From the IMG/VR virus record IMGVR_UViG_3300045988_128440: 52,515 nt of DNA. One strand, given 5' to 3'. The position numbers and the translations under genes were made by a program. The stretch comes from a virus. Below the pieces are notes generated by a model. It was given only the letters and a program-made list of their open reading frames with translations. It was not told where the DNA came from and made no database searches. How positions within the stretch are numbered: position 1 is the stretch's first letter; each line of letters starts with the position of its first letter. Positions 1,230 to 51,869 of this stretch are shown here, one piece after another.

Positions 1230-1242
1230 TTCAAATAGTAAA
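1230..1242 (+). repeat. TTCAAATAGTAAA motif copy (perfect)
   Basis: Exact 13-mer 4 nt after stop 1226; abuts SD AAGGAG; 15 nt before ATG 1257. Confidence 0.9.
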
Positions 1243-1256
1243 AAAGGAGAGATAAC

Positions 1257-1433
1257 ATGAATTTAATCATAGGTGTAGTAATTGGAGTATGTATCACTAA
1301 AATATATATAAATATTAGAAATTATTTAGAGTTTAAAAAACTAATTAAACAAGCTAATGAACTTTTGAAAATTGTTGATGAGCAAATTGAAGAGCATGAG
1401 GAATTATTAAAACAGCAAGAAGAAGAAAAATAG
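1257..1433 (+). CDS. small membrane-anchored coiled-coil protein (58 aa)
   Basis: ATG preceded by AAGGAGAG. Translation MNLIIGVVIGVCITKIYINI.. gives a hydrophobic N-terminus then a charged helix. Below the ORF-track length cutoff. Confidence 0.6.
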   Translation: MNLIIGVVIGVCITKIYINIRNYLEFKKLIKQANELLKIVDEQIEEHEELLKQQEEEK

Positions 1434-1446
1434 TGAGGTAATAGCT

Positions 1447-1746
1447 ATGGAATTTGGAGAACTACAAAATAAAGTATTATTAGTATTAGAAAAATATGAG
1501 GAAATAAGGAGTGATGATTTTAAGCTATATTTTCATGTATGTAGGTCAATAAATGAGAATGTAGCAATCATGGATAGATTTTCTTATGTAATGCTAAATC
1601 ATAAAGAATTAGGCTTTCCATCTTTTGAAAGCGTGACACGTTGTAGAAGAAAGGTGTTTGAGTTATACCCTAATTTAAAGCCTGAAAAAGTAACAAAATT
1701 TAGAAAGGAAAAAGAAGAAGAATTTAAGGAGTATGCAAAATCATGA
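1447..1746 (+). CDS. hypothetical protein
   Basis: 99-aa ORF with RBS GTGAGG upstream; its stop overlaps the next start (ATGA). Confidence 0.75.
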   Translation: MEFGELQNKVLLVLEKYEEIRSDDFKLYFHVCRSINENVAIMDRFSYVMLNHKELGFPSFESVTRCRRKVFELYPNLKPEKVTKFRKEKEEEFKEYAKS

Positions 1747-2884
1747 ATGATAACATAAAAAAATTTAACCCATTAAATGTAAGTAGTAAATTTGCTATAT
1801 GTGGTTTACCAATTAGGATTGACTCATATAAAACGTGTTCGTTTGGTTGTAAATATTGTTTTGCCGAAAATAGAAAAATCATGGAGTATGAGAAAAAAAT
1901 CCAAGTAGCAAATATTAATCAAGTAAAGAATAAATTAAAAAAAGTGTTTGATGATAAAAAGGTTGACCAAACAAATTTTTTAGAAACTTTAATTGATAAT
2001 GGCATAACGTGGCATTGGGGGGGATGAGCGATCCGTTTCAACCATGCGAAAAGAAATTACAAATAACAAAGCAATTATTAGATATTACTAATAAATATGG
2101 TATTCATGTATTGTTTTCAACTAAAAGTAATACAACGTATGATTGCGATATTAGACCTGATTTACACACGTTCCAATTAAGTATTACAAATGTTGATGAT
2201 TTAAAAAACATTGAACCTAATGTACCAAGTATAGAAAGTAGATATAAATTTTATAGGGAGCTAAAAGACAAAGGCTTTAAAGTTGGAATAAGAATACAAC
2301 CATTTATACCTAATATATCAACATTAAAAATAGTTGAAATGTTTAAGGACGCTGATAACTTTACTTTAGAGGGTATAAAAATTGTTCCACAAAACAAAGA
2401 ATGTAAAGAGTTTATTTTAAAAGAAATGAATTTAGAAAAAGAAAACTTTACTCAAATGGGATTATTAAATTTAAAGCCTACAATTAGACTAGAAATGTAT
2501 AAACCATTTATAGAATATTTTGAAAAACATAATATACCATATTCAATAGCGGATAATGATTTACATTTTATAGGCACGAATAAATGTTGTTGTGGAGATA
2601 GATTAGTACACAAAAGCACATCGTTTAATAATACAGCAATGATTAAATGTTATGGAGAAGATTATGCAAAAGAACAGTTAGATGATGAATTGTTTGAGTG
2701 TGGTGTACGTGATTGTAAATGTAACCATCTATTCACTTCAAATAGACAAGAGGGTTGTATAAGCGTTCAAGATTTCTATGATAAAAGATTTTATAGAAAA
2801 TCAAGTCCATTTTCTCCAATGTTTCAATATAAATTAGAAAGTGAAAAGAAACAAATAGAACAAATAAGCATATTTGATGTTTAG
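1743..2884 (+). CDS. radical SAM protein (SplB/COG1533-like), reading frame broken by a -1 shift at a G7 run (2017-2023)
   Basis: CSFGCKYC (CxxxCxxC) lies in ORF 1743..2027. GGMSDPFQPCE, the conserved continuation, lies in ORF 2009..2884. One extra G, or a -1 slip, joins them as ..WHWGGMSDPFQP.. Confidence 0.7.
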
Positions 2885-2886
2885 TA

Positions 2887-2899
2887 TTCTAATAGTAAA
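2887..2899 (+). repeat. motif variant TTCTAATAGTAAA
   Basis: One mismatch; 3 nt after stop 2884 and upstream of promoter 2927. Confidence 0.7.
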
Positions 2900-2926
2900 T
2901 TTATTTTAAATATAGAAGCATATTAT

Positions 2927-2955
2927 TTGTATGTGTATCACATATATAGTATTAT
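2927..2955 (+). promoter_or_regulatory. SigA-type promoter TTGTAT-N17-TATTAT with spacer inverted repeat ATGTG-TAT-CACAT
   Basis: Hexamers at 2927-2932 and 2950-2955 with 17-nt spacing, about 40 nt upstream of ATG 2996. Confidence 0.55.
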
Positions 2956-2995
2956 AAATATGTAAGATAAATTCATTCAAAAAGGGGATAGCAAA

Positions 2996-3190
2996 ATGCT
3001 AACATCAAAACAATCTTTATCAAAAATCAAAAAATATTATAGGAACTCAAAATTTTATGAGTATGATGATATTATTGATTGGTACGTTGATAAAGATACA
3101 AAAACATCTTATTCATGGGAATTTGAATTACATGGTGAAAAGCATGAAATAAAATGTAATAAAGAGAATGGAAAAATTGAAGTCCTTTAG
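2996..3190 (+). CDS. hypothetical protein
   Basis: 64-aa ORF with RBS AAGGGG upstream; followed by a terminator. Confidence 0.7.
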   Translation: MLTSKQSLSKIKKYYRNSKFYEYDDIIDWYVDKDTKTSYSWEFELHGEKHEIKCNKENGKIEVL

Positions 3191-3203
3191 GGCTTCTTTT
3201 TTT
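3179..3203 (+). terminator. intrinsic terminator
   Basis: Stem gaagtcc/gggcttc (one G.U pair), loop ttta, then T7. Confidence 0.6.
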
Positions 3204-3205: not shown

Positions 3206-3218
3206 TTCAAATAGTAAA
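3206..3218 (+). repeat. TTCAAATAGTAAA motif copy (perfect)
   Basis: Directly after the terminator T-run; 33 nt before ATG 3252. Confidence 0.9.
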
Positions 3219-3424: not shown

Positions 3425-4729
3425 TTGGAGTTGTTTTTATTGGAAATAGAAATTGTTAGTATTCATGATTTAATACCCTATGATAACAATGCAAAGGAAC
3501 ACCCAAAAGAGCAAATTGAACAAATAAAGGAGTCTATTATTAAATTTCATAATAATGACCCTATAGCGATTGATGAAAACAATGTAATTATAGAGGGGCA
3601 TGGAAGATATGAAGCTTTAAAAGAGTTAGGTTATGAGCAAGTTGAATGTATTAGGTTAGACCATTTAAATGACGATCAAAAGAAAGCATATAGACTTGTT
3701 CATAATAAACTCACAATGAATAGTGATTTTAATTTTGATTTATTAGAAGAAGAATTAAAGACTATTAACGATATAGATATGGGTTTCTTTGATTTTGATA
3801 TGTCTATGTTTGATGAAATTGAGGAAGAAATAAAAGAGGAAGCAAATAAAAAACTAACTGATGAATTTCTAATACCACCTACAAGCGTTTTTGATACAAG
3901 ACAAGGCTATTGGCAAGAAAGAAAAAGAGCATGGAAAGACATTGGTATATCTAGCGAAGTTGGACGAGATGAAGCTTTATTAGGAAGTGGTTTAAAACTA
4001 TTAGCCAATAAGTTAGGAAGTAAAACATTAACAGGAACAAGCATTTTTGACCCTGTATTATGTGAAATCATTTATAAATGGTTTAATGTTCATCAAGGAA
4101 ATATATTTGATTGCTTTGCTGGTGGAAGTGTAAGGGGTATTGTAGCCGAGAAACTAGGTTATAAATATACTGGAATTGATTTAAGAAAAGAGCAAGTAGA
4201 AGCAAATATATTAAATGCTAATGAATTGAATTTAAACCCTACTTGGATATGTGATGATAGTTTAAACGCTGATTTATACGTTGAAGATAATAGCGTTGAT
4301 TTATTGTTTAGCTGTCCTCCTTATGCTGATTTAGAAGTCTATAGTGATGATGAAAGAGATATATCCAATATGGACTATGAGCAATTTAAAGATGTTTATA
4401 AAAAGATTATTGATATAGCTTGTAGAAAAGTAAAAGATGATCGCTTTGCGGTATTTGTTGTTGGTGATGTAAGGGATAAAAAAGGTTATTATAGAAACTT
4501 TGTTGATTATACTAAAGAGTGTTTTAATAATAATGGTTTCATGACATACAACGAGATTATTTTATTAGAGCAATTAGGAACTATCCCAATGAGAGCAAGG
4601 CTAGTATTTAAAAAAAGAAAAGTAGCAAAGGCACATCAAAACATATTGATATTCTATAAAGGTGATATAAACAACATTCCTTGTAATTACAGTAATATAG
4701 AAGTAGGACAAATAGAAGATACTCAATAG
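3425..4729 (+). CDS. ParB-like nuclease domain fused to SAM-dependent DNA methyltransferase (SPPY type)
   Basis: N-terminus IHDLIPYDNNAKEHP..IIEGHGRYEA is ParB-N-like. The C-terminal half has DCFAGGS (motif I) and FSCPPYADLE (motif IV). The true start is probably TTG 3440, after GGAG. Confidence 0.8.
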   Translation: MELFLLEIEIVSIHDLIPYDNNAKEHPKEQIEQIKESIIKFHNNDPIAIDENNVIIEGHGRYEALKELGYEQVECIRLDHLNDDQKKAYRLVHNKLTMNSDFNFDLLEEELKTINDIDMGFFDFDMSMFDEIEEEIKEEANKKLTDEFLIPPTSVFDTRQGYWQERKRAWKDIGISSEVGRDEALLGSGLKLLANKLGSKTLTGTSIFDPVLCEIIYKWFNVHQGNIFDCFAGGSVRGIVAEKLGYKYTGIDLRKEQVEANILNANELNLNPTWICDDSLNADLYVEDNSVDLLFSCPPYADLEVYSDDERDISNMDYEQFKDVYKKIIDIACRKVKDDRFAVFVVGDVRDKKGYYRNFVDYTKECFNNNGFMTYNEIILLEQLGTIPMRARLVFKKRKVAKAHQNILIFYKGDINNIPCNYSNIEVGQIEDTQ

Positions 4730-4745: not shown

Positions 4746-4758
4746 TTCAAATAGTAAA
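4746..4758 (+). repeat. TTCAAATAGTAAA motif copy (perfect)
   Basis: After the T-run that follows stop 4729; immediately upstream of promoter 4767. Confidence 0.9.
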
Positions 4759-4766: not shown

Positions 4767-4795
4767 TTGATTATATGTAATACATATATTATAAT
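4767..4795 (+). promoter_or_regulatory. SigA-type promoter TTGATT-N17-TATAAT carrying palindrome ATATGTA-A-TACATAT
   Basis: Hexamers at 4767-4772 and 4790-4795; palindrome at 4773-4787. Member of the reused promoter family. Confidence 0.65.
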
Positions 4796-4828
4796 AAGTA
4801 CATAAGATAAAGAAAGAGGTAAAACAAT

Positions 4829-5136: not shown

Positions 5137-5149
5137 TTCAAATAATAAA
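5137..5149 (+). repeat. motif variant TTCAAATAATAAA
   Basis: One mismatch; follows hairpin gggga-tttat-tcccc; 21 nt before ATG 5171. Confidence 0.7.
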
Positions 5150-5341: not shown

Positions 5342-5357
5342 TTAGATACAGTTAAAT

Positions 5358-5386
5358 GAGAACTCTTAATTGGGTTCTCTTTTTTG
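5358..5386 (+). terminator. intrinsic terminator (gagaac/gttctc family)
   Basis: Stem gagaac(5358-5363)/gttctc(5374-5379) plus T6. Confidence 0.65.
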
Positions 5387-5417
5387 TTAAAAAAAGTAAA
5401 AAAGTTATTGTGAAATA

Positions 5418-5446
5418 TTGACATTTATATGTAATACATATATAAT
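5418..5446 (+). promoter_or_regulatory. consensus SigA-type promoter TTGACA-N17-TATAAT with palindromic spacer and A-rich UP region
   Basis: TTGACA at 5418-5423, TATAAT at 5441-5446, palindrome ATATGTAATACATAT at 5427-5441. Near-identical to 14509 and very similar to 6285 and 39405. Confidence 0.75.
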
Positions 5447-5479
5447 ATAAGTGTAATAAGAAAGAGAGAGGTACATATT

Positions 5480-5870: not shown

Positions 5871-6257
5871 ATGTGGAAGAATATAAACATTTCAAAAAAT
5901 AATATAGATCATGAAACAGTTAAAGCGGTATTAATCAAAATGCCTAACAAAAGCGATTATAAAGGTTATTGCTTTTGGCACTCATCAAAGCTAGTTAGAA
6001 AGGGAAGAAACAAAAACAGTATATCTATAGGGTATACAAATGATTTCACTTTCAAGCTAATTAAATATGGTAATGGAAAATATAATAAATATGACATTAT
6101 CAAAGAAATAGAAATTAGCGTAGATGAATTTGAAAAAGCCTTTGAGGTGATGAATGAAAACATTAAAGAAAAGACTTTTAAGAATGAATATGAAACATAT
6201 AAACCTCAACATAAAGAAGTTGAAAAAGTAGAGATTGAGCAAGAATTATTAGATTAA
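5871..6257 (+). CDS. hypothetical conserved phage protein
   Basis: 128-aa ORF with RBS AAGGA upstream. Confidence 0.75.
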   Translation: MWKNINISKNNIDHETVKAVLIKMPNKSDYKGYCFWHSSKLVRKGRNKNSISIGYTNDFTFKLIKYGNGKYNKYDIIKEIEISVDEFEKAFEVMNENIKEKTFKNEYETYKPQHKEVEKVEIEQELLD

Positions 6258-6284
6258 AAAAATAAAAAATATTATTGGAAAATA

Positions 6285-6313
6285 TTGACTTTTCTATGTA
6301 ATACATATATAAT
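6285..6313 (+). promoter_or_regulatory. SigA-type promoter TTGACT-N17-TATAAT (reused promoter family)
   Basis: Hexamers at 6285-6290 and 6308-6313; spacer contains tatgtaatacatat. Confidence 0.7.
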
Positions 6314-6363
6314 ATAAACGTAATAGGAAGGGGGAACTCAAAGGAGTTCATAGGAATAAGAAA

Positions 6364-8594: not shown

Positions 8595-9248
8595 ATGAAT
8601 GAAACATTAAAAAAAGAACTTGAAAGGATTGATCAATTACCTATTGAAGATAAGGTTAAAGAAATCAATGAATTAAAGAAAGGAATTAAAAAGATTAGTC
8701 CGTTTGTAAAAGAGCCTGTTGATTGTGTTATTTGGGTTAAAAGTGATGAAGTAGTAGCAAATGAATATAACCCTAACCATGTAGCACCTCCTGAAATGGA
8801 ATTGTTGCATACATCAATTAAAGAAGATGGATATACACAACCTATAGTAGTTTATCAACATGACGGAAAATATGAAGTTGTTGATGGTTTCCATAGAAAC
8901 AGGGTTGGTAAGGAATACAAAGATATTAATGAAAGAATTAAAGGTTATTTGCCAGTTGTAGTTATTAATGAAGATGTAGCTGACAAGGGGCAAAGAATAG
9001 CAAGTACAATTAGACACAATAGAGCAAGAGGAAAACACCAAGTAGAAGCAATGAGCGACATTGTTCTTGATTTAAGAAAGAGAAATTGGAGCAATGAAAA
9101 AATAGCTAAAAAATTAGGTATGGACGCTGACGAAGTTTTAAGACTAGCACAAATTACAGGACTTGCCGAAATGTTTGCGGATAAAGATTTTAATGAAGCT
9201 TGGGAATGTGATTTAGAGGAAGAAGAGTTAATAAATGAAGATGAATAG
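8595..9248 (+). CDS. ParB/Srx-fold protein, IbrB-like
   Basis: ANEYNPNHVAPPEMELLHTSIKEDGYTQPIVV..VVDGFHRNRV plus a C-terminal HTH-like segment IAKKLGMDADEVLRL. Confidence 0.7.
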   Translation: MNETLKKELERIDQLPIEDKVKEINELKKGIKKISPFVKEPVDCVIWVKSDEVVANEYNPNHVAPPEMELLHTSIKEDGYTQPIVVYQHDGKYEVVDGFHRNRVGKEYKDINERIKGYLPVVVINEDVADKGQRIASTIRHNRARGKHQVEAMSDIVLDLRKRNWSNEKIAKKLGMDADEVLRLAQITGLAEMFADKDFNEAWECDLEEEELINEDE

Positions 9249-9627
9249 AATATATCACCCATATTGGTTATGGGAGGACTATTTGCATAGAATGTATGAA
9301 ACACCATTGAAAAGTAAAATAAATGGTATTGATGAAGAAGAAAGACTATTGAAAGTTGTTGAGTGTTTAGGTAATGAAAAGACTTGTTATAAATATATGA
9401 AATTGGTTATTGATCAATGGAAATATGCTTGTGAATATAGATTAACTAATAAATCTTTGAATAGGATAGCATGGCTTGGTCAATGTGCTTGTTGTTTGTA
9501 TGGTGGAATAAAGCAAGATGAAACTAAAAAAGCATGGCATTTATTAAGTGAAGAACAACAACAAAAAGCTAATGAAATAGCAAGAAAATTAATTGAAGAA
9601 TGGGAGGTTGAACACTTTGGACAATAG
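9235..9627 (+). CDS. hypothetical Cys-rich protein between the ParB-like and PP-loop genes
   Basis: 130-aa ORF overlapping both neighbours; contains NRIAWLGQCACCLYGG. Confidence 0.7.
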   Translation: MKMNRIYHPYWLWEDYLHRMYETPLKSKINGIDEEERLLKVVECLGNEKTCYKYMKLVIDQWKYACEYRLTNKSLNRIAWLGQCACCLYGGIKQDETKKAWHLLSEEQQQKANEIARKLIEEWEVEHFGQ

Positions 9628-10843
9628 AAGATATTTAGGTATTGATGTATTAACAGCTTCAAAAGAAAGAATTAAATGGGCATTTGATAATTTTGAAAAG
9701 ATATGTATTTCCTTTAGTGGGGGAAAAGATAGTACAGTAATGACACACCTAGTCATGGAAGAAGCAAAAAAAAGAAATAGAAAGGTAGCGTTGCTATTTA
9801 TTGATTGGGAAATCCAATATAAATTAACTATTGAACACGTACAACATATCTATGATATGTATAAAGATTATATTATTCCTTATTGGGTAGCATTACCGCT
9901 ATTAACCGATAATGCTTGTAGTATGTATGAGCCTGAATGGATTTCATGGGATAAAGCAAAAGAAAATCTATGGACTAGAAAACCACCTAAAATAGCAATT
10001 ACTGATGAAAACTATTTCCCATTTTACTATTATAAAATCACGTTTGAGGAATTTGTTCCATTGTTTGGTGAATGGTATGGAGAGGGAAAAAGTACAGCTT
10101 GTTTTGTAGGAATTAGAACAAGAGAAAGTTTAAACCGATATAGAGCATTAACAAACAAAAAGAAAAACAAGTATAAAGATAAAATGTTTACTACTTGTGT
10201 AACTGATAATGTTTATAATGTCTATCCTATCTATGATTGGAGCGCTGAAGATGATTGGAAATACTTTGGAAAGACAAAGAAACCATATAATAAATTGTAT
10301 GATCGTTTCTTTCAAGCTGGATTAACATTACATCAAATGAGAGTTGATGAACCATTTGGAGATACAACAAGAAGAAGTTTATGGCTATACCAAATTATTG
10401 AGCCTGAAACATGGGGAAAGATGGTATTAAGAGTTAATGGAGCAAATAGCGGTAGCTTGTATTCAAGAGATAATGGAAACATTTTAGGAAATAGAAGTAT
10501 TACATTGCCAAAAGGTCATACATGGCAAAGTTTCTCTAATTTCTTATTAGATACAATGCCAAAGAAAACAGCGGAACACTATAAAACAAAAATAGCTGTT
10601 TATATTAAATGGTATATGAATAGAGGCTATGTTGATGGAATACCTGATGAAGTAGACAAACAAATGGAAAAACAAAATGATGTACCATCATGGAGAAGAA
10701 TATGCCAAACGTTATTAAGAAATGATTATTGGTGTAAAGGTCTTGGATTTAGTCCAACAAAACAAAGTGCCTATAATCAATATTTAGAACGAATGAAGAA
10801 AAAAAGAAAAGAATGGGATATATATGGAGATGTAGAAGAATGA
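9593..10843 (+). CDS. PAPS-reductase-family PP-loop ATPase, IbrA/DndC-like
   Basis: ISFSGGKDSTVM PP-loop motif plus a long C-terminal extension. The likely start is TTG 9617, after GGGAGG. TGA is followed directly by TAA. Confidence 0.75.
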   Translation: MKNGRLNTLDNRRYLGIDVLTASKERIKWAFDNFEKICISFSGGKDSTVMTHLVMEEAKKRNRKVALLFIDWEIQYKLTIEHVQHIYDMYKDYIIPYWVALPLLTDNACSMYEPEWISWDKAKENLWTRKPPKIAITDENYFPFYYYKITFEEFVPLFGEWYGEGKSTACFVGIRTRESLNRYRALTNKKKNKYKDKMFTTCVTDNVYNVYPIYDWSAEDDWKYFGKTKKPYNKLYDRFFQAGLTLHQMRVDEPFGDTTRRSLWLYQIIEPETWGKMVLRVNGANSGSLYSRDNGNILGNRSITLPKGHTWQSFSNFLLDTMPKKTAEHYKTKIAVYIKWYMNRGYVDGIPDEVDKQMEKQNDVPSWRRICQTLLRNDYWCKGLGFSPTKQSAYNQYLERMKKKRKEWDIYGDVEE

Positions 10844-11243: not shown

Positions 11244-11256
11244 TTCAAATAGTGAA
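11244..11256 (+). repeat. motif variant TTCAAATAGTGAA
   Basis: One mismatch; merges into SD AAAGGAG; 13 nt before ATG 11270. Confidence 0.7.
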
Positions 11257-14236: not shown

Positions 14237-14249
14237 TTCAAATAATAAA
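14237..14249 (+). repeat. motif variant TTCAAATAATAAA
   Basis: One mismatch. In this copy TTCAAA-N17-TAGAAT, with TG upstream, could itself act as a promoter. Confidence 0.7.
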
Positions 14250-14285: not shown

Positions 14286-14459
14286 GTGACGGAAGCACAA
14301 AGAAAAGCGTCAAAGAAATATAACGAGAAAAACACAAAGATATACCCTATAAAGGTAAATTTAAAAACCGAAAAGGATATATACGATAAATTAGAAAGTG
14401 TTGATAATGTAAATGGTTATATTAAACAGTTAATTAGAAAAGACATTGAGAACTCATAA
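14286..14459 (+). CDS. ribbon-helix-helix-like small protein (57 aa)
   Basis: GTG after AAAGGAGTGG. Translation MTEAQRKASKKYNEKNTKIYPIKVNLKTEKDIYDKLESV..YIKQLIRKDI. Confidence 0.5.
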   Translation: MTEAQRKASKKYNEKNTKIYPIKVNLKTEKDIYDKLESVDNVNGYIKQLIRKDIENS

Positions 14460-14474
14460 AAGAGTTCTTTTTTT
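14449..14474 (+). terminator. intrinsic terminator (agaactc/gagttct family)
   Basis: Stem agaactc/gagttct, loop ataaaa, then a T-run. Confidence 0.7.
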
Positions 14475-14508
14475 AATGAAAAAAATTGAAAAATATTATT
14501 GTAAAATA

Positions 14509-14537
14509 TTGACATTTATATGTAATACATATATAAT
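14509..14537 (+). promoter_or_regulatory. consensus promoter TTGACA-N17-TATAAT with palindromic spacer
   Basis: Identical core to 5418..5446; A-rich UP region aaaaattgaaaaatattattgtaaaata upstream. Confidence 0.75.
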
Positions 14538-14566
14538 ATAGATGTAAGGTAAAGGAGATAAGAAAA

Positions 14567-15046: not shown

Positions 15047-15074
15047 TTGAATTTTATAATAAATGTGATATTAT
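15047..15074 (+). promoter_or_regulatory. promoter TTGAAT-N16-TGaTATTAT (extended -10)
   Basis: -35 at 15047-15052; TG at 15066-15067; -10 at 15069-15074. Confidence 0.45.
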
Positions 15075-15080
15075 ATTAGT

Positions 15081-15203
15081 GTCCTTTTAGAGATAAAAGG
15101 CGCTTGTACTAATGTATGGTTTAGCAAATTTTCTTATTTTTAAATCCTTTCTAGTATAAAATGACACGAATGCAATTAAGACACTGTAAAAGGTGTCTTT
15201 TTT
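15081..15203 (+). ncRNA. candidate ~120-nt small RNA (promoter-to-terminator unit without a credible ORF)
   Basis: Bounded by promoter 15047 and terminator agacac-tgtaaaag-gtgtct-T6 (15179-15203). Internal hairpin cctttt-agagat-aaaagg (15083-15100). Only 15-19-codon ORFs lacking an SD are present. Confidence 0.3.
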
Positions 15204-15231
15204 GCTTTGTAAATAATTAACATTAAAAGTA

Positions 15232-17390: not shown

Positions 17391-17405
17391 AAGAGGTGAT
17401 TTAAA

Positions 17406-17831: not shown

Positions 17832-17873
17832 TATTTATAAATCTAAAAAAAGAAAAATAAGGAGATAAACAAA

Positions 17874-37255: not shown

Positions 37256-38839
37256 ATGGCTATAGAATTAGCAAGTGGATTTTTTAATGCAATAATGCAA
37301 GATGGAGTACCTGATAGAACTTATAATTGTGATGATTTAAACGAGTTTCTAAAAGGTTTGGTAAGTGAAAATGGTATTTATGCGGAGGTTTCAAGCGCTT
37401 GTCAAGTAGTAGCAAGTAGTGGAATGAATGTTGTTGTAAAAACAGGTAAAGGGCAAATAGGCTTTAATTGGTTTGAAATTGAAAGTGATACAACATTAGA
37501 AATTGCAAATAGTGATGTTGTTTTAAATCGTATTGATAGGGTTGTTATTCAAAGAAGTTTAACTAATAGAAATACAGTTATATATGTTAAACAAGGTACG
37601 TTAGCTTCAAACCCTACACCACCAGCATTAACAAGAAATGAAAGTGTATATGAGATTGCTTTAGCTGATATTCTAGTGTCTAAAAATATTAGTGCAATCA
37701 CAACATCTTTAATTACTGACCAACGATCAAACAATAATGTTTGTGGCTGGATTGTAGGATTGATTGAACAATTTGATACAACTACATTATTTAATCAATA
37801 TGAAGAAGCACAAGACAATTTTATAAACAATCAAACACAAAACTTTAACAATTGGTTTAATGGCATTAAAGAAGAAGTAAAAGCAACAAGTTTATATAGA
37901 GAATATCGTTCATTATATGCAACAGTAAATGCAAATGAGCAAGACATTTCTATTCCATCTACAATATTATTTGATAACAACGGATTAGATGTATTAGAGG
38001 TTATTATTAATGGTTTAGTAGCGAATGACAATCAATATAGTATTAGTGATGATGGAACTAGTATTCATTTAACAAGTCCGTTAAGCGTTATTGGTACTAA
38101 AGTTGAGTTTGTAAATAAAAAGTCGGTTGAGGGTACAGTAGCTGAAAGCACAGTTTTAAGAGTTGAAGCATTAGAAAAGAAAGTCAATGATACTTATAAT
38201 TGCTGTTATGAAGCAACAGGGCAAAACGATAACGTTAAACTATCTAATATGGTTCAAGACTTCTTACAAGGGGTTGGAAACTATGCAGGTGTTCAAGATA
38301 CATCTTGCCTTTATATTAAAGTTTGTGATGTGCTAGGAATTACAAGTACGATTGATGGGAATGTATTTGATTTCAATAGTACAGCGACAACAAATAGAAG
38401 AGTTATAGTTGATTTTGCAAGTGCTACAATTCCTTTGATTAATTTAAGTGGAAATATAGCTATTATGAGTTGTACCGATCACATTTCAATTAAACACGCT
38501 AATATTAAAGCAACTAAAAGAAGTGGGCAAACAATGTATGGTTTCTATGGAGGTCATTATGACGATTGCCACATTAATATTGATTGTGCTAGTTCAACAG
38601 GTACTTGCTATGGTGCTTGGTCTTGCAAAGATGTTTCAAATAGTGAAATTAATTTAACAAACGTTTCAAATACAGCGTATGGAATTTATGAATGTGATAA
38701 ATCATTATTTAACAATATCTCTATGAGTTCAGGAACATCAATAAGATTAAGAGGTAAAAAGTTAATGATGGGTAACTTTGTAAATAAATCTATTGATGTT
38801 GACTCAAACGTTACAAATATAGGAACTATTACAGTTTAG
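37256..38839 (+). CDS. tail fibre / receptor-binding protein
   Basis: ATG after AGGAGGTG; 527 aa; last tail gene before the holin. Confidence 0.55.
   Translation: MAIELASGFFNAIMQDGVPDRTYNCDDLNEFLKGLVSENGIYAEVSSACQVVASSGMNVVVKTGKGQIGFNWFEIESDTTLEIANSDVVLNRIDRVVIQRSLTNRNTVIYVKQGTLASNPTPPALTRNESVYEIALADILVSKNISAITTSLITDQRSNNNVCGWIVGLIEQFDTTTLFNQYEEAQDNFINNQTQNFNNWFNGIKEEVKATSLYREYRSLYATVNANEQDISIPSTILFDNNGLDVLEVIINGLVANDNQYSISDDGTSIHLTSPLSVIGTKVEFVNKKSVEGTVAESTVLRVEALEKKVNDTYNCCYEATGQNDNVKLSNMVQDFLQGVGNYAGVQDTSCLYIKVCDVLGITSTIDGNVFDFNSTATTNRRVIVDFASATIPLINLSGNIAIMSCTDHISIKHANIKATKRSGQTMYGFYGGHYDDCHINIDCASSTGTCYGAWSCKDVSNSEINLTNVSNTAYGIYECDKSLFNNISMSSGTSIRLRGKKLMMGNFVNKSIDVDSNVTNIGTITV
38635..38647 (+). 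repeat. motif variant TTCAAATAGTGAA (intragenic)
   Basis: One mismatch; about 200 nt before the end of CDS 37256..38839. Confidence 0.5.
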
Positions 38840-39025: not shown

Positions 39026-39352
39026 ATGGACGGAAATACAACAATTAGTGTAGCGTTATTGATTTCAGTTGCAAGTATTGTATTTACCGCATTGAATTTT
39101 CGTAGAAACGCAAAGAAAGATGATGAAGAACATCAAAGAGAAAAAGAGAAGCAAGTAGAAAATAGATTAAAGATGAATATGAAATTAGATCAATTATGCA
39201 ATACAACAAATGAAATAAGAAGCGATACAAAAGCAACATTTGAACAAATGAGGAATTTAGAGAAACGTGTTGGACTTGTAGAGCAATCGACAAAAACATT
39301 GCATGAAAGATTAGATGATCACATTAAGCAAACAAGGGGCATTGATGAATAA
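39026..39352 (+). CDS. XhlA-like membrane-anchored coiled-coil lysis accessory protein
   Basis: N-terminal TM segment TTISVALLISVASIVFTAL followed by a coiled coil. Confidence 0.5.
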   Translation: MDGNTTISVALLISVASIVFTALNFRRNAKKDDEEHQREKEKQVENRLKMNMKLDQLCNTTNEIRSDTKATFEQMRNLEKRVGLVEQSTKTLHERLDDHIKQTRGIDE

Positions 39353-39367
39353 TCAATGTCTTTTTTT
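39340..39367 (+). terminator. intrinsic terminator
   Basis: Stem cattgat/atcaatg, then tc plus T7. Confidence 0.65.
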
Positions 39368-39404
39368 ATTTGTAAAAAAAATTGAAAAAATTTACTGTAA
39401 AATA

Positions 39405-39433
39405 TTGACATATATATGTAATACCTATATAAT
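39405..39433 (+). promoter_or_regulatory. promoter TTGACA-N17-TATAAT (reused promoter family)
   Basis: Hexamers at 39405-39410 and 39428-39433; spacer atatgtaatacctat; A-rich UP region. Confidence 0.7.
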
Positions 39434-39483
39434 AAAGGTGTAATAAGAAAGGGAGTTCAAAGGAACTCATAAGGATAAGAAAA

Positions 39484-39822: not shown

Positions 39823-39835
39823 TTCAAATAGTAAA
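39823..39835 (+). repeat. TTCAAATAGTAAA motif copy (perfect)
   Basis: Follows hairpin gctataca-ttaat-tgtatagc; 21 nt before ATG 39857. Confidence 0.9.
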
Positions 39836-39856: not shown

Positions 39857-40252
39857 ATGATCAAACATTATTATATTGAAAATGGAAACAAGGTTTATTT
39901 TACAAAGGAACAAGAAGAAGAATTAACATATGGTAGATTAAGCAAAGAATTAATAGGGAAAGTTGGTGCAATAATCCCTTTTGATGTTACTTGCAAAGTA
40001 AAAAAAGGTGAAAAGTTTGAAGATATTGAAGTAACTAATACTAATATGTATCTTCAAAGAAATATATTAGGTGATTATCAAAATTGCTATGTTTATGTAG
40101 ATAAACAAGGTAATTATTACATTGAAGAAAATGATAGTACAATTACATATTATTTTGAATACAAGGAAGAATTTATACCTTTAATTCCACTAGCTGGTAA
40201 AGATTTAGAAATCATAAATAGAAGATACAACGTAAATTTAGGAGGGAAATAA
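39857..40252 (+). CDS. hypothetical protein
   Basis: 131-aa ORF with RBS TAGGAGA. Confidence 0.75.
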   Translation: MIKHYYIENGNKVYFTKEQEEELTYGRLSKELIGKVGAIIPFDVTCKVKKGEKFEDIEVTNTNMYLQRNILGDYQNCYVYVDKQGNYYIEENDSTITYYFEYKEEFIPLIPLAGKDLEIINRRYNVNLGGK

Positions 40253-40959: not shown

Positions 40960-41310
40960 ATGAATGAATTTGATGAAATTATGAAAACTGTAAATGAAAG
41001 TTTTCAAATAGTAGAAAAAGAAAAGGAAGAGAAGCCTATTCAAATTAAAAGAAAGAGGACTTTGGAGGATAGCACCATGTATAAGTATTATGAAGCAAAA
41101 AAGAATTTATTAGTACCCATGAAGCTTAAAAATGGAATGTATAGGCTCGTAAAAATACCTAAAGGTAAAAGGTATCGTTACTATGATGAAATCAACAGGA
41201 GGGGCAAAATAACGCTATGTAAAGAGGTGTTTAATAAAGAGTGGTTACGTGATGTTATTACAATGCCTAGAGAAGATTTTAAAAAGTATTTTAAAGAGGT
41301 GAAAAAATGA
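40960..41310 (+). CDS. hypothetical protein
   Basis: 116-aa ORF. Confidence 0.7.
   Translation: MNEFDEIMKTVNESFQIVEKEKEEKPIQIKRKRTLEDSTMYKYYEAKKNLLVPMKLKNGMYRLVKIPKGKRYRYYDEINRRGKITLCKEVFNKEWLRDVITMPREDFKKYFKEVKK
41003..41015 (+). repeat. motif variant TTCAAATAGTAGA (intragenic)
   Basis: One mismatch; near the 5' end of CDS 40960..41310. Confidence 0.4.
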
Positions 41311-42790: not shown

Positions 42791-44647
42791 TTATTCAGTT
42801 TCATCAATTAGTATCTTTAAATGAGGTGTAAGTGTGAATTTATCTATAGCTTCCTTGTTCCATCTTCCACCCTCATTTTTTTCATATTCCACTTTTATGA
42901 AAATATCCTTTAATAAATCGTTCTTTTCTTGTATACTTAACTTGTCATATTGTTTTAGGCAATCCGCTATTATAGGGATTGCTTTTTTATATCTAATAAT
43001 CTTATCTTGGTTAGTATCTTTTAAAATTTCTTCCTTTGTTTTTTCTATCTCTTTTAATTCGTTTTCTATATCGTTTTTATCCTCAATATATTCATTATAA
43101 GTAAATTCTTCTCTATTGTATGATCGTCTTAAATTCTTCAATTCTTTCTTTAAATCCTCAATTTGCTTTTCAATTTTATTTAATGTTTTAGCGTTGCTTT
43201 TAGCTTCTTTGATTATTTCTTGCTCATAGTTATCTACATAGTATCTAAAATCATTTAGTTGTATTTCTAATGCCTGTAATAATCTTTTTTCTACAAGTTG
43301 CAACTCACTAGAAACATTGTCACAAAACGGAGTTAAACATATCAAGCTATCATTTTGTTTAACTTTCTTGTTATAGGTGGTTATAATCTTATCCCATTTG
43401 CTGTCTTTGATTTCAAGCACTTCTTTTAATTGATACCAATGATTAGCAAGGTTTTTCCCATCATAGAATTTATCAATGTTAGTAGGAAACCACCCTTTAA
43501 CTGTATCTCTTGATATATTCATTTTTTTAGCTATTTGAGATAAAGAAAGATTAGATTTCTCTTTTGAACTTCTCATAAAGTCTAATAGTTCTTGTTTATC
43601 ATACTTATATTTTCTAAAACCATTTTTTAAATGCTTTTCGTTGTATGGTCTCCTTATCATATGCCTACCGCATTTCTTACAAAAGACAACACCAGCTAAA
43701 GGATTAGAAGCGTTTTTATTTCCACCTAATTTAGATGATGGGTGAGATTTTAATATCTCTTGTACGTTTTTAAATTCTTCTTCACTTATTAATGCTTTAT
43801 GCTTTCCTTTGTAGACATAGTATTTATCATTTAGCTTTCTTTTTTTGACAACCTCACCATTAATAATCTCTTCAACTGTTTTAAACTTTTCCCATGTGTT
43901 ATAACCACAATAAACCTCGGATGTAACTATATTTCTAACCATAGCAGGTGTCCAATATTCATTCTTTCTAGCCTTGTATTTGTACTTATTTAAATGGTTT
44001 GCTAGATTGCTAGTACCAACACCCTCTAAAAGCATTTCAAACATTAAAATAACTGTTTGTGACTCTTCCTCATGAGGTTCTAATATAAAGCGATCTTGTT
44101 CATCATGTAATTGCTTTCTTTTATATCCAAAAGGTGCTGAACTCCCTATGTAATAACCGTCTCTAACCGATTTATGCCTACCTCTATTCATAACATCTTT
44201 AGCATAGTTACGATATTCAGCGGATTGTATCATACGCATTTCAAGATACTTTTTATCCATAGGATTTTTTAGATCATAAGTTTGGTCAAGGGTTGCTATT
44301 AGAGTGTTAGTAACATCAAATATTTTTAAAACATCACCAGCACCATACATACCACTTCTACTTAAACGTTCAGGGTCAACACACCAAACACGTTTTATAT
44401 TTCCATTTTCTAATCTTCTTAAAAGTCGTAAAAAGTCAGGTCTATCTTTTATATTTTCTCCACCTGATACAATTTCCCTATATATATTTTCTTCTTTAAC
44501 AGGCTTTCCTGTGGTTTTTATACATAACTCTTGTAATTGTTCCTCATGCCTTTTTAATGTGATCTCTATTGGTTCTTTTATGTTGTCACTTCTTGATTTT
44601 CTTAATAGCATTAAATCTATTTCTTCAAATATTGGAATTTTGTTCAT
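42791..44647 (-). CDS. large serine recombinase (integrase)
   Basis: N-terminal resolvase motif LLRKSRSD..YREIVSGG, a recombinase domain, zinc ribbon CKKCGRHM and a long coiled-coil C-terminus; 618 aa. Confidence 0.9.
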   Translation of the reverse strand: MNKIPIFEEIDLMLLRKSRSDNIKEPIEITLKRHEEQLQELCIKTTGKPVKEENIYREIVSGGENIKDRPDFLRLLRRLENGNIKRVWCVDPERLSRSGMYGAGDVLKIFDVTNTLIATLDQTYDLKNPMDKKYLEMRMIQSAEYRNYAKDVMNRGRHKSVRDGYYIGSSAPFGYKRKQLHDEQDRFILEPHEEESQTVILMFEMLLEGVGTSNLANHLNKYKYKARKNEYWTPAMVRNIVTSEVYCGYNTWEKFKTVEEIINGEVVKKRKLNDKYYVYKGKHKALISEEEFKNVQEILKSHPSSKLGGNKNASNPLAGVVFCKKCGRHMIRRPYNEKHLKNGFRKYKYDKQELLDFMRSSKEKSNLSLSQIAKKMNISRDTVKGWFPTNIDKFYDGKNLANHWYQLKEVLEIKDSKWDKIITTYNKKVKQNDSLICLTPFCDNVSSELQLVEKRLLQALEIQLNDFRYYVDNYEQEIIKEAKSNAKTLNKIEKQIEDLKKELKNLRRSYNREEFTYNEYIEDKNDIENELKEIEKTKEEILKDTNQDKIIRYKKAIPIIADCLKQYDKLSIQEKNDLLKDIFIKVEYEKNEGGRWNKEAIDKFTLTPHLKILIDETE

Positions 44648-44680
44648 TAATTAACACCTTTTTCTTATTGTCATAAAGTT

Positions 44681-44693
44681 TTCAAATAGTTAA
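44681..44693 (+). repeat. motif variant TTCAAATAGTTAA
   Basis: One mismatch. On the + strand although adjacent to the - strand integrase start; 67 nt before ATG 44761. Confidence 0.6.
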
Positions 44694-44760
44694 TATTTAA
44701 ATATAAAGTATTCATACATAAATCAATCATACATAACATAGAATTTTTTGAGGTGATCAA

Positions 44761-44931
44761 ATGCAAATAGGAAATACTACAATCAATTTTATAAACCCAC
44801 CAGCACAAACAAAAGACAACCTAAAAAATCTATATGATACTTGCAATAGAATATTCAAAGATGAAGCGTTATTTTATTCAAAAGATGAAATAAAAAAATT
44901 AAAGAAAAATAAAAAGAATATTTGGTTATGA
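44761..44931 (+). CDS. hypothetical protein (56 aa)
   Basis: RBS GAGGTG then ATG; followed by hairpin gaagc-gcaat-gcttc. Confidence 0.5.
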   Translation: MQIGNTTINFINPPAQTKDNLKNLYDTCNRIFKDEALFYSKDEIKKLKKNKKNIWL

Positions 44932-45312: not shown

Positions 45313-45358
45313 TATTAAAAACTCCTTTCTAGTAATAATTCTAATATATCATAGTGTA

Positions 45359-45371
45359 TTCTAATAGTAAA
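45359..45371 (+). repeat. motif variant TTCTAATAGTAAA in the switch region
   Basis: One mismatch; the same variant as at 2887. Confidence 0.55.
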
Positions 45372-45400: not shown

Positions 45401-45429
45401 TTGCCAAAAAATAAAAATTATTGTAAAAT
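45401..45429 (+). promoter_or_regulatory. rightward promoter TTGCCA-N17-TAAAAT with TG extension
   Basis: Hexamers at 45401-45406 and 45424-45429, with TG at 45422-45423. Confidence 0.5.
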
Positions 45430-45466: not shown

Positions 45467-45479
45467 TTCAAATAGTAGA
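45467..45479 (+). repeat. motif variant TTCAAATAGTAGA
   Basis: One mismatch; followed by AAGGAGA. Confidence 0.6.
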
Positions 45480-45595
45480 AAGGAGATTGAATAAAGACGA
45501 TTTATAGAAAATTTATGCAATTTAATGGAACGTATGTTCTTATAATTAAAAAAGTTATATCATGATGATATTACATAAATAAAGAGGGCGATTAT

Positions 45596-45769
45596 ATGAA
45601 TAAATTGATTGATGAATTAGAAAAACTTATTTTTGAGGAAAATATCAAATTTCAAAAACATCACATAGAAAGCCTTAAACAAAAGATTGTTGAGATCGAA
45701 CAACAAGCAAATTTTTATGATGATGATATAAGCGAAATTGATTATAAGGAGGTAAAAGGCATGATTTAA
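45596..45769 (+). CDS. hypothetical coiled-coil protein (57 aa)
   Basis: RBS AGAGGG then ATG. Hairpin gcatgat-ttaa-tcatgc overlaps the stop. Confidence 0.5.
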   Translation: MNKLIDELEKLIFEENIKFQKHHIESLKQKIVEIEQQANFYDDDISEIDYKEVKGMI

Positions 45770-45789: not shown

Positions 45790-45802
45790 TTCAAATAGTA
45801 AA
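45790..45802 (+). repeat. TTCAAATAGTAAA motif copy (perfect)
   Basis: Abuts SD AAAGGAGG of the cro-like gene. Confidence 0.9.
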
Positions 45803-49969: not shown

Positions 49970-49978
49970 ATAAAATGC

Positions 49979-49991
49979 TTCAAATAGTAAA
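49979..49991 (+). repeat. TTCAAATAGTAAA motif copy (perfect)
   Basis: 10 nt after the ssb stop; 55 nt before ATG 50047. Confidence 0.9.
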
Positions 49992-50046
49992 TATTAATAG
50001 AGGTTTGCATACATTGTAAATCTCTATTAATTCAAAAGGAGGACAT

Positions 50047-50238
50047 ATGAGAAGATTAAAATTGTGGATAGTACACCACCCACATTTAACAAGATTTATT
50101 ATAAAAGAATTGATTGTTTTAATTATTTTTGCATTATTTGTTGGAATATATCATTTTTTTATTAGTTCATTTACTTTAAAAGAAATCGTTATTTTACTTA
50201 TAGGTTACCATTTTATACTTTATATATTGGGTAGTTAA
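50047..50238 (+). CDS. small membrane protein
   Basis: RBS AAAGGAGG; two hydrophobic segments. Confidence 0.65.
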   Translation: MRRLKLWIVHHPHLTRFIIKELIVLIIFALFVGIYHFFISSFTLKEIVILLIGYHFILYILGS

Positions 50239-50730
50239 ATGATTAAAATTCAAGCTGATTATACAAGAAAACTAATTAATGAAAATGGTGATTTAGAAGT
50301 CACGTTTACTATTAAAGATTATGCAAGTAAAAAGAGATTTGATGAACTAAACAAAGATATATACCAATTAGAAATAACAAAACCAAGAAGTAAAAGAAGT
50401 CTTAACCAAAACAGGCTCTTTTGGAAAATGGTTGGACTTATTTCAAATAAATTAAATCAAGATGAAATGGAAATATACATTTTATTATTAGAAGATACAA
50501 ACGCAAAATATGAGTACATCATGGGAATAGAAGCTATTGAAGATGAATTAAAAAGGACATTTAGGGCGGTTAAGGTTGTAAGACCTGAATATCATAACGG
50601 AAAGAAATTTATCATTTATAAAGTGTTCTATGGTTCGTCTAAATTTGACACTAAAGAAATGACAATGTTAATTGATAAAGCTATGTCATGGTGTCATGAG
50701 TTGGATATACCTATTGATGATGAATATTAG
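50239..50730 (+). CDS. conserved phage protein (RSLNQNRLFW motif; possibly NinB-like)
   Basis: 163-aa ORF; the function guess is weak. Confidence 0.6.
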   Translation: MIKIQADYTRKLINENGDLEVTFTIKDYASKKRFDELNKDIYQLEITKPRSKRSLNQNRLFWKMVGLISNKLNQDEMEIYILLLEDTNAKYEYIMGIEAIEDELKRTFRAVKVVRPEYHNGKKFIIYKVFYGSSKFDTKEMTMLIDKAMSWCHELDIPIDDEY

Positions 50731-50742
50731 AGGTAAAAGGAA

Positions 50743-51087
50743 ATGGAAATAAGATTACAAGAAAGTATTGATTTTACGTGTAAAGGCAAGTGTTCAAAAT
50801 GCGGAGCGTGTTGTTCAAATTTATTACCTTTAACAAAAGCTGAAATTAGGCATTTAAGAGAAATCGTTAAGAAAAGAAAATTAAAACCTCATTATCATAT
50901 ATTGTATAACGCTAAATATGATATGAATTGCCCATTTTTAAACGATCAAAACAAATGCTCTATTTATGAAGATAGACCATATATATGTAAAATTTTTAAA
51001 TGTGATAAGGAAGCAATGAATGAAAAAGAAGCAAGAAGATTAATTAATGCAAAATTAACCAATTTAAGAGAGGTAATTTTTAAATGA
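50743..51087 (+). CDS. YkgJ-family Cys-cluster (zinc/iron-chelating) protein
   Basis: CKGKCSKCGACCS..CPFLNDQNKCSIYEDRPYICKIFKC. Confidence 0.65.
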   Translation: MEIRLQESIDFTCKGKCSKCGACCSNLLPLTKAEIRHLREIVKKRKLKPHYHILYNAKYDMNCPFLNDQNKCSIYEDRPYICKIFKCDKEAMNEKEARRLINAKLTNLREVIFK

Positions 51088-51359
51088 AATCAATTTTACA
51101 AGATGAAAAGAAATGTTATATCACAGGGGCAAAACATGGATTACATCAACATCATATATATATGGGTGCTAATAGAAAGAACGCTGATAAATGGGGTTGT
51201 TGGGTATGGTTAAGAGCTGATTGGCATAATATGAGCAATTATGGAGTTCACTTTAATAGAGAATTAGATTTAAAACTAAAAAGAGAATGTCAAAAAAAGT
51301 TTGAGGAATTATATGATCATGAAACTTTTATGAAAGTATTCCATAAGAATTATTTATAA
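51084..51359 (+). CDS. conserved phage protein
   Basis: 91 aa; contains CYITGAKHGLHQHHIYMGANRKNADKWG.. Confidence 0.65.
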   Translation: MKSILQDEKKCYITGAKHGLHQHHIYMGANRKNADKWGCWVWLRADWHNMSNYGVHFNRELDLKLKRECQKKFEELYDHETFMKVFHKNYL

Positions 51360-51479
51360 AACGCTCATATTTCGATTTTAAGAGGTTTTTATAAAAACAC
51401 GATTAACTTATCTAAATATATAAAAATCTCTTTATATGATTAAAATAAGCAATAAATAAAACGTATTAAGAGGTGTAGT

Positions 51480-51851
51480 ATGCAAAGATTTATTATTAAA
51501 GGTCGATTAGATGGATTGAACGAGGTTATTTTAGCAAATAGAACAAATAAATATAAAGGTGCGAAAATAAAGAAAGACAATGAAACCATAGTTATATATT
51601 ATGCTAGGCTATATAAACTAAAGCCAATAACTAAATATCCTATTAAATTAAAAATTGATTGGTATGAGAAGAATAAACGCAGGGATATAGATAATGTATT
51701 GAGTGCTAAAAAATTTATTCTTGATGGATTGGTTAAAGCCAAAATATTAAAAGGTGATGGGCAAAAGTATTTTGATGAAGTAATAAAAGAAAATGTATAT
51801 ATTGATAAAGAAAATCCACGTATTGAAGTAACTATAATTGAGAATGACTAA
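51480..51851 (+). CDS. rusA: RusA-like Holliday junction resolvase
   Basis: RRDIDNVLSAKKFILDGLVKAKILKGDGQKY pattern; 123 aa. Confidence 0.6.
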   Translation: MQRFIIKGRLDGLNEVILANRTNKYKGAKIKKDNETIVIYYARLYKLKPITKYPIKLKIDWYEKNKRRDIDNVLSAKKFILDGLVKAKILKGDGQKYFDEVIKENVYIDKENPRIEVTIIEND

Positions 51852-51856
51852 ATGTA

Positions 51857-51869
51857 TTCAAATAGTAAA
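51857..51869 (+). repeat. TTCAAATAGTAAA motif copy (perfect)
   Basis: 6 nt after the RusA stop; upstream of promoter 51888. Confidence 0.9.

Follow-up and report, generated by a model that had tools for sequence, protein, structure and literature searches.

A strictly oriented 13-nt repeat linked to the repressor gene of a low-GC gut Firmicute phage as a candidate stoperator-type operator array

Stoperators of the Cluster A phages L5 and Bxb1 are asymmetric 13-bp sites that occur in 24-34 copies, lie in intergenic DNA in one orientation and no longer support repression when inverted (PMC9283540, PMC3029335). Start-associated sequences (SAS) of Cluster K mycobacteriophages include the Shine-Dalgarno (SD) core, are found 3-7 bp ahead of start codons and occur only in the non-structural half of the genome (PMC3203893). 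Promoter early stem-loops (PeSLs) of T4-type phages, which are lytic, combine a strong sigma-70 promoter with a terminator stem-loop (PMC2839356, PMC4122927). Here a 13-mer, TTCAAATAGTAAA, was analyzed in IMG/VR virus record IMGVR_UViG_3300045988_128440, and the whole 52,515-nt stretch is referred to as the window. The window is a circularly assembled genome of 52,416 bp (bases 1-99 are identical to bases 52417-52515) with 28.9% G+C and is a complete temperate tailed phage. The 13-mer was not found in a literature search. A phage-encoded factor plausibly recognizes it. In the favored reading, which was given a probability of about 0.5, its copies are operators of the CI-type repressor that are spread along the genome as orientation-dependent, stoperator-like transcription roadblocks.

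Copies were counted against a background of 100 dinucleotide-preserving shuffles. Twelve perfect copies were found, all on the + strand (mean 0.05 and maximum 1 in shuffles), and allowing one mismatch gave 22 copies, again all on the + strand (12 perfect and 10 one-mismatch; 0.74 expected, maximum 3). At up to two mismatches there were 36 matches versus 12.4 expected. The minus strand held six matches only, each with two mismatches, corresponding to the chance level. The recount reproduced all 12 perfect coordinates of the sequence-only reading, an earlier description made from the letters of the window, together with the very large enrichment and the strict + orientation that it had claimed. 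Its nine one-mismatch copies were also correct, and a tenth, at 35821 (TTCAAATACTAAA, in a coding sequence (CDS)), had been missed.

Seventeen of the 22 copies are intergenic, in a genome of which intergenic DNA makes up 7.8%, and 16 of the 39 intergenic gaps of at least 13 nt contain a copy. Most window copies start 2-20 nt past the upstream stop codon or terminator T-tract, in line with the placement described earlier; the next start codon lies 7-96 nt downstream, in place of the 13-110 nt previously given. A hairpin precedes only 5 of the 17 intergenic copies. In many copies of the window and of relatives the SD begins 0-4 nt past the motif, and approximately half of the copies are directly upstream of an SD. 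The five remaining copies are inside CDS (18398, 19209, 35821, 38635 and 41003). Two of these, 18398 and 19209, are perfect copies within the same CDS in different frames (LQIVN versus SNSK) and are therefore not a protein repeat; the DNA word itself is conserved.

The consensus from 117 non-redundant contexts of this phage group is AAT[G/T][C/A]TTCAAATA[G/A]TAAA (~18 bp), which includes the GC or TA prefix reported before; the site is also written AATGCTTCAAATAGTAAA. Information is confined to positions -5 to +13, save for a diffuse enrichment of G where SDs fall. Position 9 is a purine, and positions 5-10 read AATAGT or AATAAT. No second conserved block at fixed spacing was present on either side in the 117 contexts, and no convincing dyad or direct half-site symmetry was seen in the 18-bp consensus when judged by eye. 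The motif is probably a DNA-level site of the immunity cassette, that is, an asymmetric, ~15-18 bp predicted binding site of the immunity switch.

Linkage to the repressor gene was assessed in loci whose fetched DNA includes that gene (sources IMG/VR, GTDB metagenome-assembled genomes (MAGs) and ENA gut metagenomes). The motif was present in all ~45 repressor-bearing loci (repressors 62-100% identical to that of the window; 26-40% G+C), on the strand opposite the repressor gene, which is the sense strand of the lytic genes. Core positions in these loci are the repressor -35, the early leader or the site just before cro, and a site beside the integrase gene. Scanning IMG/VR for the pattern retrieved related contigs in which several copies share one strand, the distant ones having little in common with the window beyond a 69-72% identical repressor. 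Relatives at 34-40% G+C (L136, L174 and L184) carry three co-oriented copies only, all in the immunity region (16-20 kb), which argues that the core function is that of an operator; one additional one-mismatch match in L136, on the opposite strand elsewhere, is at chance level. Four phages with 27-29% G+C and no repressor homologue (L200, L201, L202 and L205) contained 0 copies and no other dispersed 11-mer. A link to replication was rejected, as these four phages lack the motif and encode a replication protein homologous to that of the window (46-65% identity). Peaks of k-mers in L136, L174 and L173 were considered as analogous motifs and rejected as start-codon context (TTCAAAATGG) or coding repeats. 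In the L132/L176 subgroup, where the repressor gene is followed by an integrase gene of equal direction, the copy next to the integrase is reversed and again agrees with the downstream gene, which indicates that orientation tracks local transcription and not the genome axis. Co-orientation with transcription holds in all relatives with a single exception (L178:5915). The sequence-only reading had drawn no link to the repressor gene, had assigned the motif no role at mosaic breakpoints and had not named the Cluster A stoperators as an analogue.

Copies in the immunity switch are listed in Table 1. A promoter scan of the window gave 69 matches versus 83 in shuffles, and only promoters conserved across subgroups were relied on because the scan is uninformative in AT-rich DNA. 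The TTTACT/TTTGCT-17-TAnnnT arrangement at O1 is kept in six subgroups (W, L126, L132, L136, L170 and L171). An equivalent of the predicted early promoter PR (-35/17/-10) lies 27-29 nt right of O1 in 6/6 subgroups, and a copy lies 27-37 nt past the PR -10 in 5/6 (O2 in the window). A copy stands directly before cro in subgroups W, L126, L136/L184/L174 and L170, and in L170 this copy is also the PR-leader copy. The integrase-side copy was found in all repressor subgroups; in the window this copy shares bases with the spacer and -10 of a promoter predicted at 44668-44696 (TTGTCA-17-TAATAT) ahead of 44761-44931. O1 is the best-conserved copy. It lies upstream of PR, beyond a bidirectional terminator and outside the sense RNA, and because it is untranscribed in the sense orientation the motif must act as DNA there.

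Two other features were recorded in the switch region. A perfect 6+1+6 palindrome (TATCAT-G-ATGATA, 45558-45570) is found shortly before the SD of the first early gene and is not conserved in the L126 subgroup. A small acidic coiled-coil protein with a conserved (V)IDELG motif is encoded at 45596-45769, beside cro in most immunity cassettes examined, and is also present in relatives L132, L136, L173 and L174. It had no Pfam or PHROGs match and may be an antirepressor or switch component.

Candidate reader proteins were sought by profile scans of 40 non-structural proteins against Pfam, ten of which were also scanned against PHROGs; the gene map was built from the list of open reading frames (ORFs) and their translations. 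The repressor and the Cro-like protein were the only recognizable DNA-binding proteins. An AlphaFold2 (AF2) model of the repressor (mean predicted local distance difference test score, pLDDT, 85) has an XRE domain of five helices that a flexible linker joins to a C-terminal two-helix hairpin, and its best Foldseek matches were C.BclI, C.AhdI, SinR, Stl and DdrO. No likeness to a Cluster A mycobacteriophage repressor was found by PDB sequence search or by Foldseek. The repressor recognition helix (SRGQVSNLETGRRN, within the helix-turn-helix (HTH) LGGLSRGQVSNLETGRRNLN) does not vary among 40 homologues whose sequences otherwise differ. The Cro recognition helix differs among motif-sharing subgroups (SHYSL, SFFCL, QHYSD, AHYSN, SAYSN and AYINQ), and L174 has three sites and no Cro homologue at the usual place. 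Because the CI helix is invariant, that of Cro is variable and L174 is without Cro at the usual place, the 121-aa repressor is most likely the reader of the motif as judged from sequence. Roadblocks before terS, tail and lysis genes would fit occupancy in the lysogen and not in lytic growth, which also points to the repressor.

Under the favored reading, repressor bound at O1 in a lysogen would cover its own -35 and give autoregulation, and repressor bound at 44681 would cover the promoter of the small gene at 44761. Occupancy of O2 and the cro-side site would halt RNA polymerase after initiation at PR. The ~17-20 dispersed sites, most of which adjoin the 3' end of a gene or a terminator, would form a series of orientation-dependent roadblocks to elongation, at which transcription from stray starts or read-through would halt between genes. 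The prophage would thereby stay silent, and infection by incoming homoimmune phages would abort. The two perfect copies in one CDS in two frames suit a roadblock in DNA and not a start-site or ribosome-binding-site signal. A broader claim, that stoperator-type silencing evolved independently in low-GC gut Firmicute phages with an XRE repressor, an ~18-bp site at ~20 boundaries and sites that are also module crossovers within a large homoimmune population of the human gut, is tentative and was placed at somewhat worse than even odds.

Several observations weigh against the roadblock reading. The link of CI to the motif was inferred from co-occurrence and logic, and the shared ancestry of the motif-bearing loci contributes to that co-occurrence. 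The repressor family gave at least 600 matches; the 120 homologues listed are all at least 68% identical and have the same helix throughout, and none of them pairs a changed helix with a changed site. As modeled, the repressor resembles dimeric or oligomeric regulators that usually read palindromes, yet the site is without a dyad. The switch promoters are predictions, and O1 and O2 lie outside the core of predicted PR; with this core uncovered, repression of PR would have to be by roadblock or looping. Several copies (4746, 51857 and L070/L111) have a good sigma-A promoter 6-18 nt downstream, and bound repressor would not obviously block these; the promoters downstream of 4746 and 51857 had been noted in the sequence-only reading and are present. 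One perfect copy, L178:5915-5927, points the opposite way. This copy borders an inserted methylase/specificity-subunit module, which sister contigs lack, and may be a scar of recombination at a motif copy. Some copies have decayed in some lineages, and not every copy is thus essential; the 4746 copy, for example, has decayed to at least 3 mismatches in the subgroup with an 89% identical repressor.

A Cro-like or other immunity-cassette protein might read the site instead, shutting the repressor promoter and damping early transcription in lytic growth. The cro gene is in the same cassette with equal co-occurrence, a copy directly precedes it, and the site is on the -35 of the repressor promoter, the classic target of Cro in lambda. 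This alternative is considered improbable, given that the motif is constant where the Cro recognition helix varies, that L174 retains its sites, and that Cro-bound roadblocks before terS, tail and lysis genes would harm lytic growth.

Junctions with relatives were compared by BLAST, and 13 of 104 clusters of breakpoints were located within 40 nt of copies (~3.5 expected), of which those at 1236 and 3212 are the heaviest. Syntenic junctions behind g2996, the replication gene, SSB and RusA keep the upstream gene together with the motif, and at least five unrelated sequences come next; the 51857 copy is kept after 63-65% identical RusA genes despite different downstream sequence. Among 199 distinct 133-nt contexts, 45 pairs were alike upstream only, with identity ending 0-1 nt past the motif in 39, and 47 pairs were alike downstream only, 36 of them with identity that stops 0 or 5 nt ahead of the motif. 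The copies are the sole sequence common to otherwise unrelated neighboring modules. They thus probably serve as crossover points, presumably via the phage Sak/Rad52-type annealing protein and PD-(D/E)XK nuclease; Sak/Rad52-type recombinases act in relaxed homologous recombination. Crossovers at copies would drive mosaicism and perhaps be the route by which the sites spread. This junction role is regarded as a consequence of ~20 identical 18-mers and not as the primary function.

The same data could be taken to mean that the motif regulates nothing beyond the switch and is a recombination linker, either as short shared homology or as a site recognized by a recombination function, that spread by cassette exchange, for which PeSLs are a precedent (PMC2839356). 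Homology breaks at motif edges in the 92 context pairs and at syntenic junctions, breakpoints are enriched near copies, and both an annealing protein and a nuclease are encoded. A linker would leave unexplained the fixed switch positions and the relatives with three sites only, many breakpoints lie away from copies, and strict orientation with perfect conservation over 13 nt exceeds what microhomology needs. As the sole explanation it is about as improbable as reading by Cro. A linker role is compatible with the operator role of the favored reading and is probably secondary to it.

Slightly less probable again is a promoter or activator site for a phage-specific factor or sigma with a transcript start at each module head, which was the first of three hypotheses in the sequence-only reading and is disfavored here. 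Copies are co-oriented with genes, often past terminators and ahead of genes, positions 5-10 resemble a -10 hexamer with a purine at position 9, and the upstream TGCTTCA is like a T4 MotA box. The MotA likeness is probably a coincidence and was set aside, as no -10 occurs at the required 11-13 bp spacing. No partner block was found at a fixed distance in the 117 contexts. With the SD 0-4 nt past many copies, the transcript start would fall in or after the SD and a transcript from the motif would be without a usable leader. A terminator directly follows 30775, two perfect copies are inside CDS, and the three core copies are at fixed switch positions even in relatives without dispersed copies. 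No sigma factor, RNA polymerase, Q-like protein, ArpU, RinA or late activator was found among the 40 proteins scanned with Pfam/PHROGs (remote homologues could escape). Ordinary -35/-10 promoters do not explain the motif either, as had already been concluded.

An RNA-level signal for processing, stability or translation, comparable to Cluster K SAS or to RegA/RegB-type control, was proposed second and has a still smaller chance of being correct. Copies are in the mRNA sense strand, approximately half are directly upstream of an SD, and an orphan AAGGAG follows O2 in two subgroups (W and L126). This account is opposed by the position of O1, which is on the repressor -35 and in untranscribed DNA in six subgroups, by the variable distance to the start codon (7-96 nt), by the lack of an SD core in the motif, and by copies in late genes and CDS, unlike SAS. 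The window gave no Rfam match, no tRNA and no RNA complementary to the motif. Separately, ~15050-15205, between the early and late regions, contains an extended -10 promoter (TTGAAT-16-TGaTATTAT), ~125 nt without a + strand ORF of at least 40 aa, and a strong terminator; the unit has a stable fold (-34 kcal/mol) and may be a phage small RNA. It was rejected as a partner of the motif, its pairing being no better than that of shuffled controls.

The third hypothesis, a dispersed parS/OB-like array for a ParB-fold protein (3425-4729 or 8595-9248), draws on the two ParB_N-domain proteins encoded and on KorB of IncP plasmids, which uses 12 dispersed sites, and is very unlikely given a non-palindromic and strictly oriented site, conserved copies in the immunity switch, a presence that follows the repressor gene and immunity cassette, and ParB_N genes neither of which resembles a partition system (one is fused to a methylase, the other is beside 9593-10843).

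Table 1. Motif copies, immunity genes and predicted switch promoters of the window
Feature	Position	Strand	Description
Copy	1230-1242	+	Perfect; 3 nt past replication-organizer stop, 3 nt before SD of 1257-1433; mosaic junction
Copy	2887-2899	+	1 mismatch; 2 nt past stop of 2009-2884
Copy	3206-3218	+	Perfect; 2 nt past terminator T-tract; mosaic junction, five different downstream modules in relatives
Copy	4746-4758	+	Perfect; after terminator of ParB-methylase gene, 8 nt upstream of -35 of TTGATT-17-TATAAT
Copy	5137-5149	+	1 mismatch, G9A; after hairpin, 4 nt before SD
Copy	11244-11256	+	1 mismatch; abuts SD (0 nt)
Copy	14237-14249	+	1 mismatch, G9A; 15 nt past stop codon
Copy	15232-15244	+	Perfect; after terminator, ahead of lysin-like gene 15292; overlaps -35 position of extended -10 promoter (TGATATAAT)
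Copy	18398-18410	+	Perfect; inside CDS 18208-19305
Copy	19209-19221	+	Perfect; inside CDS 18208-19305, other reading frame than 18398
Tandem pair	23264-23294	+	2-mismatch copy 23264 and perfect copy 23282; 1-3 nt before SD of terS (23302)
Copy	30775-30787	+	Perfect; 3 nt past stop of 30154-30771; terminator-like hairpin directly downstream
Copy	35821-35833	+	1 mismatch; in CDS
Copy	38635-38647	+	1 mismatch; in CDS
Copy	39823-39835	+	Perfect, intergenic; before 39857-40252; mosaic junction
Copy	41003-41015	+	1 mismatch; in CDS
Large serine integrase	42791-44647	-	From translation; member of immunity and integration cassette
Integrase-side copy	44681-44693	+	1 mismatch, TTCAAATAGTTAA; between integrase start and small gene 44761-44931
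CI-type repressor, 121 aa	44947-45312	-	XRE HTH (residues 9-70), Pfam HTH_3 E 4e-12
Repressor promoter, PRM-like	45343-45371	-	Predicted: TTTACT, 17 nt, TG-extended TATATT
O1	45359-45371	+	1 mismatch; 3' half AGTAAA = -35 (TTTACT) of leftward repressor promoter
Early promoter, PR-like	45401-45429	+	Predicted: TTGCCA-17-TAAAAT; back to back with repressor promoter
O2	45467-45479	+	1 mismatch; ~+31 in PR leader, before first early gene
Cro-side copy	45790-45802	+	Perfect; after hairpin, immediately before SD of cro-like gene
Cro-like HTH protein, 67 aa	45823-46026	+	Pfam HTH_3
Copy	49979-49991	+	Perfect; 9 nt past SSB stop; kept after unrelated SSB alleles (L173)
Copy	51857-51869	+	Perfect; 5 nt past RusA stop, 18 nt upstream of TTGATT-17-TATAAT

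The + strand carries every gene except those of the integrase and the repressor, in the order non-structural genes, then lysin-like, terminase, head, tail and lysis genes. Also encoded are a PD-(D/E)XK nuclease, a Sak single-strand annealing protein, SSB, RusA, a replication organizer and a dUTPase. Of the two ParB_N-domain proteins, that at 3425-4729 is the methylase fusion, and the gene at 8595-9248 is directly upstream of the large gene 9593-10843, whose product looks PAPS-reductase-like by eye. Relatives of the window integrase in IMG/VR (99-87% and 48% identity) adjoin the repressor gene, and Resolvase/Recombinase Pfam matches were obtained on the repressor-adjacent integrase of another repressor subgroup.

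Further features were noted outside the switch. There are two terS candidates, at 16098-16559 (PHROG-309 terS-like, beside the lysin-like gene) and at 23302-23613 (a small ORF directly before terL), and ~7 kb of tail-fiber-like genes (16566-22963) lie between them, ahead of the packaging genes. A radical-SAM-like gene is present in the window as two overlapping ORFs (1743-2027 and 2009-2884) and is uninterrupted across the same junction in relative L016 (ORF 777-1469, ...ITWHCGGMSDPFQ...); a frameshift, recoding or an error of sequencing may account for the split. The replication-organizer gene (213-1226) contains tandem 12-nt repeats (CGTGTAACGATA, ~4 copies, 694-741) encoding NDTC repeats, which may be origin iterons. 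A second intergenic repeat of ~104 nt is present at 5353-5456, 6220-6323, 14444-14547 and 39340-39443, with a partial copy at 4771-4816. It comprises the T-run of a terminator, a stretch rich in A and a strong TTGACA-17-TATAAT promoter, the spacer of which forms the perfect palindrome TATATGTA-A-TACATATA, and each copy precedes a small ORF (5480, 6364, 14567, 39484 and 4829). Gaps with the 104-nt element are mostly without the 13-mer. The element resembles a mobile promoter cassette of the PeSL type that carries an operator for another regulator.

Megablast of either half of the window against GenBank phages (50,697) gave no match, and tblastn of the repressor returned only Butyrivibrio and Bacillus phages at 35-49% identity, which indicates that there is no cultured relative. 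A terL search of GTDB genomes was without a match, and the only named genomes with the repressor were three MAGs labeled Clostridia, Bacilli and one 'Bacteroidales' bin. We describe the hosts as uncultured low-GC gut Firmicutes. Relatives are plentiful in IMG/VR and in ENA human gut assemblies; one repressor allele was found in 191 blocks of the contig collection, where it heads ~51 kb contigs from several cohorts. These phages are common in human gut metagenomes, and if they share operator and repressor they would form one large homoimmunity group.

Genome-wide prophage-repressor roadblocks have so far been documented only for Cluster A actinobacteriophages in the literature on 'stoperator', in which the matches listed were actinobacteriophages apart from one Citrobacter phage genome announcement. 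If the favored reading is true, the roadblock strategy is convergent and workable with an ordinary XRE repressor, and a second system with other RNA polymerase and repressor backgrounds would help to test why arrest is orientation-dependent. Sites that are exact mosaic junctions would link regulation to modular genome evolution. A compact protein with an 18-bp directional roadblock would also be a useful tool for low-GC Firmicutes.

Among known systems the 13-mer was compared with SAS, PeSLs, repeated operators of Firmicute phages and Cluster A stoperators. Like SAS, it is an asymmetric 13-bp repeat in one orientation upstream of many genes. Unlike SAS, it contains no GGAG, the SD lies downstream of it, late-region copies are present (15232, 18398, 19209, 23282, 30775 and 39823) and one copy is on a promoter -35. 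With PeSLs it shares the character of a short conserved intergenic element at the exact boundaries of insertions, deletions and replacements; the ~18 conserved bp contain neither promoter nor terminator, and the closer PeSL analogue is the 104-nt cassette. The asymmetric operators of the Bacillus phage phi105 repressor and the dispersed SPBRE sites of SPbeta MrpR are examples of non-palindromic or repeated sites at several positions in Firmicute temperate phages; they differ in numbering only ~6-10 and in having unrelated repressors, and are not known to form a genome-wide one-orientation array at gene boundaries. The Cluster A stoperators (L5 gp71, Bxb1 gp69 and TipsytheTRex) likewise are an asymmetric 13-bp site in more than 20 copies in a ~50-kb temperate genome, mainly in short intergenic spaces and sometimes in CDS, in one orientation relative to transcription, with copies in the immunity/early-promoter region and a tie to the repressor gene. 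The hosts differ (low-GC gut Firmicutes here, Actinobacteria there), the predicted reader is a 121-aa XRE HTH with a helical hairpin in place of the two-domain monomeric gp71 type (HTH and Stoperator domain), and the site here is ~18 bp and leaves the early promoter core uncovered. Orientation-dependent arrest is described for the Cluster A stoperators and is predicted here from sequence by analogy with them.

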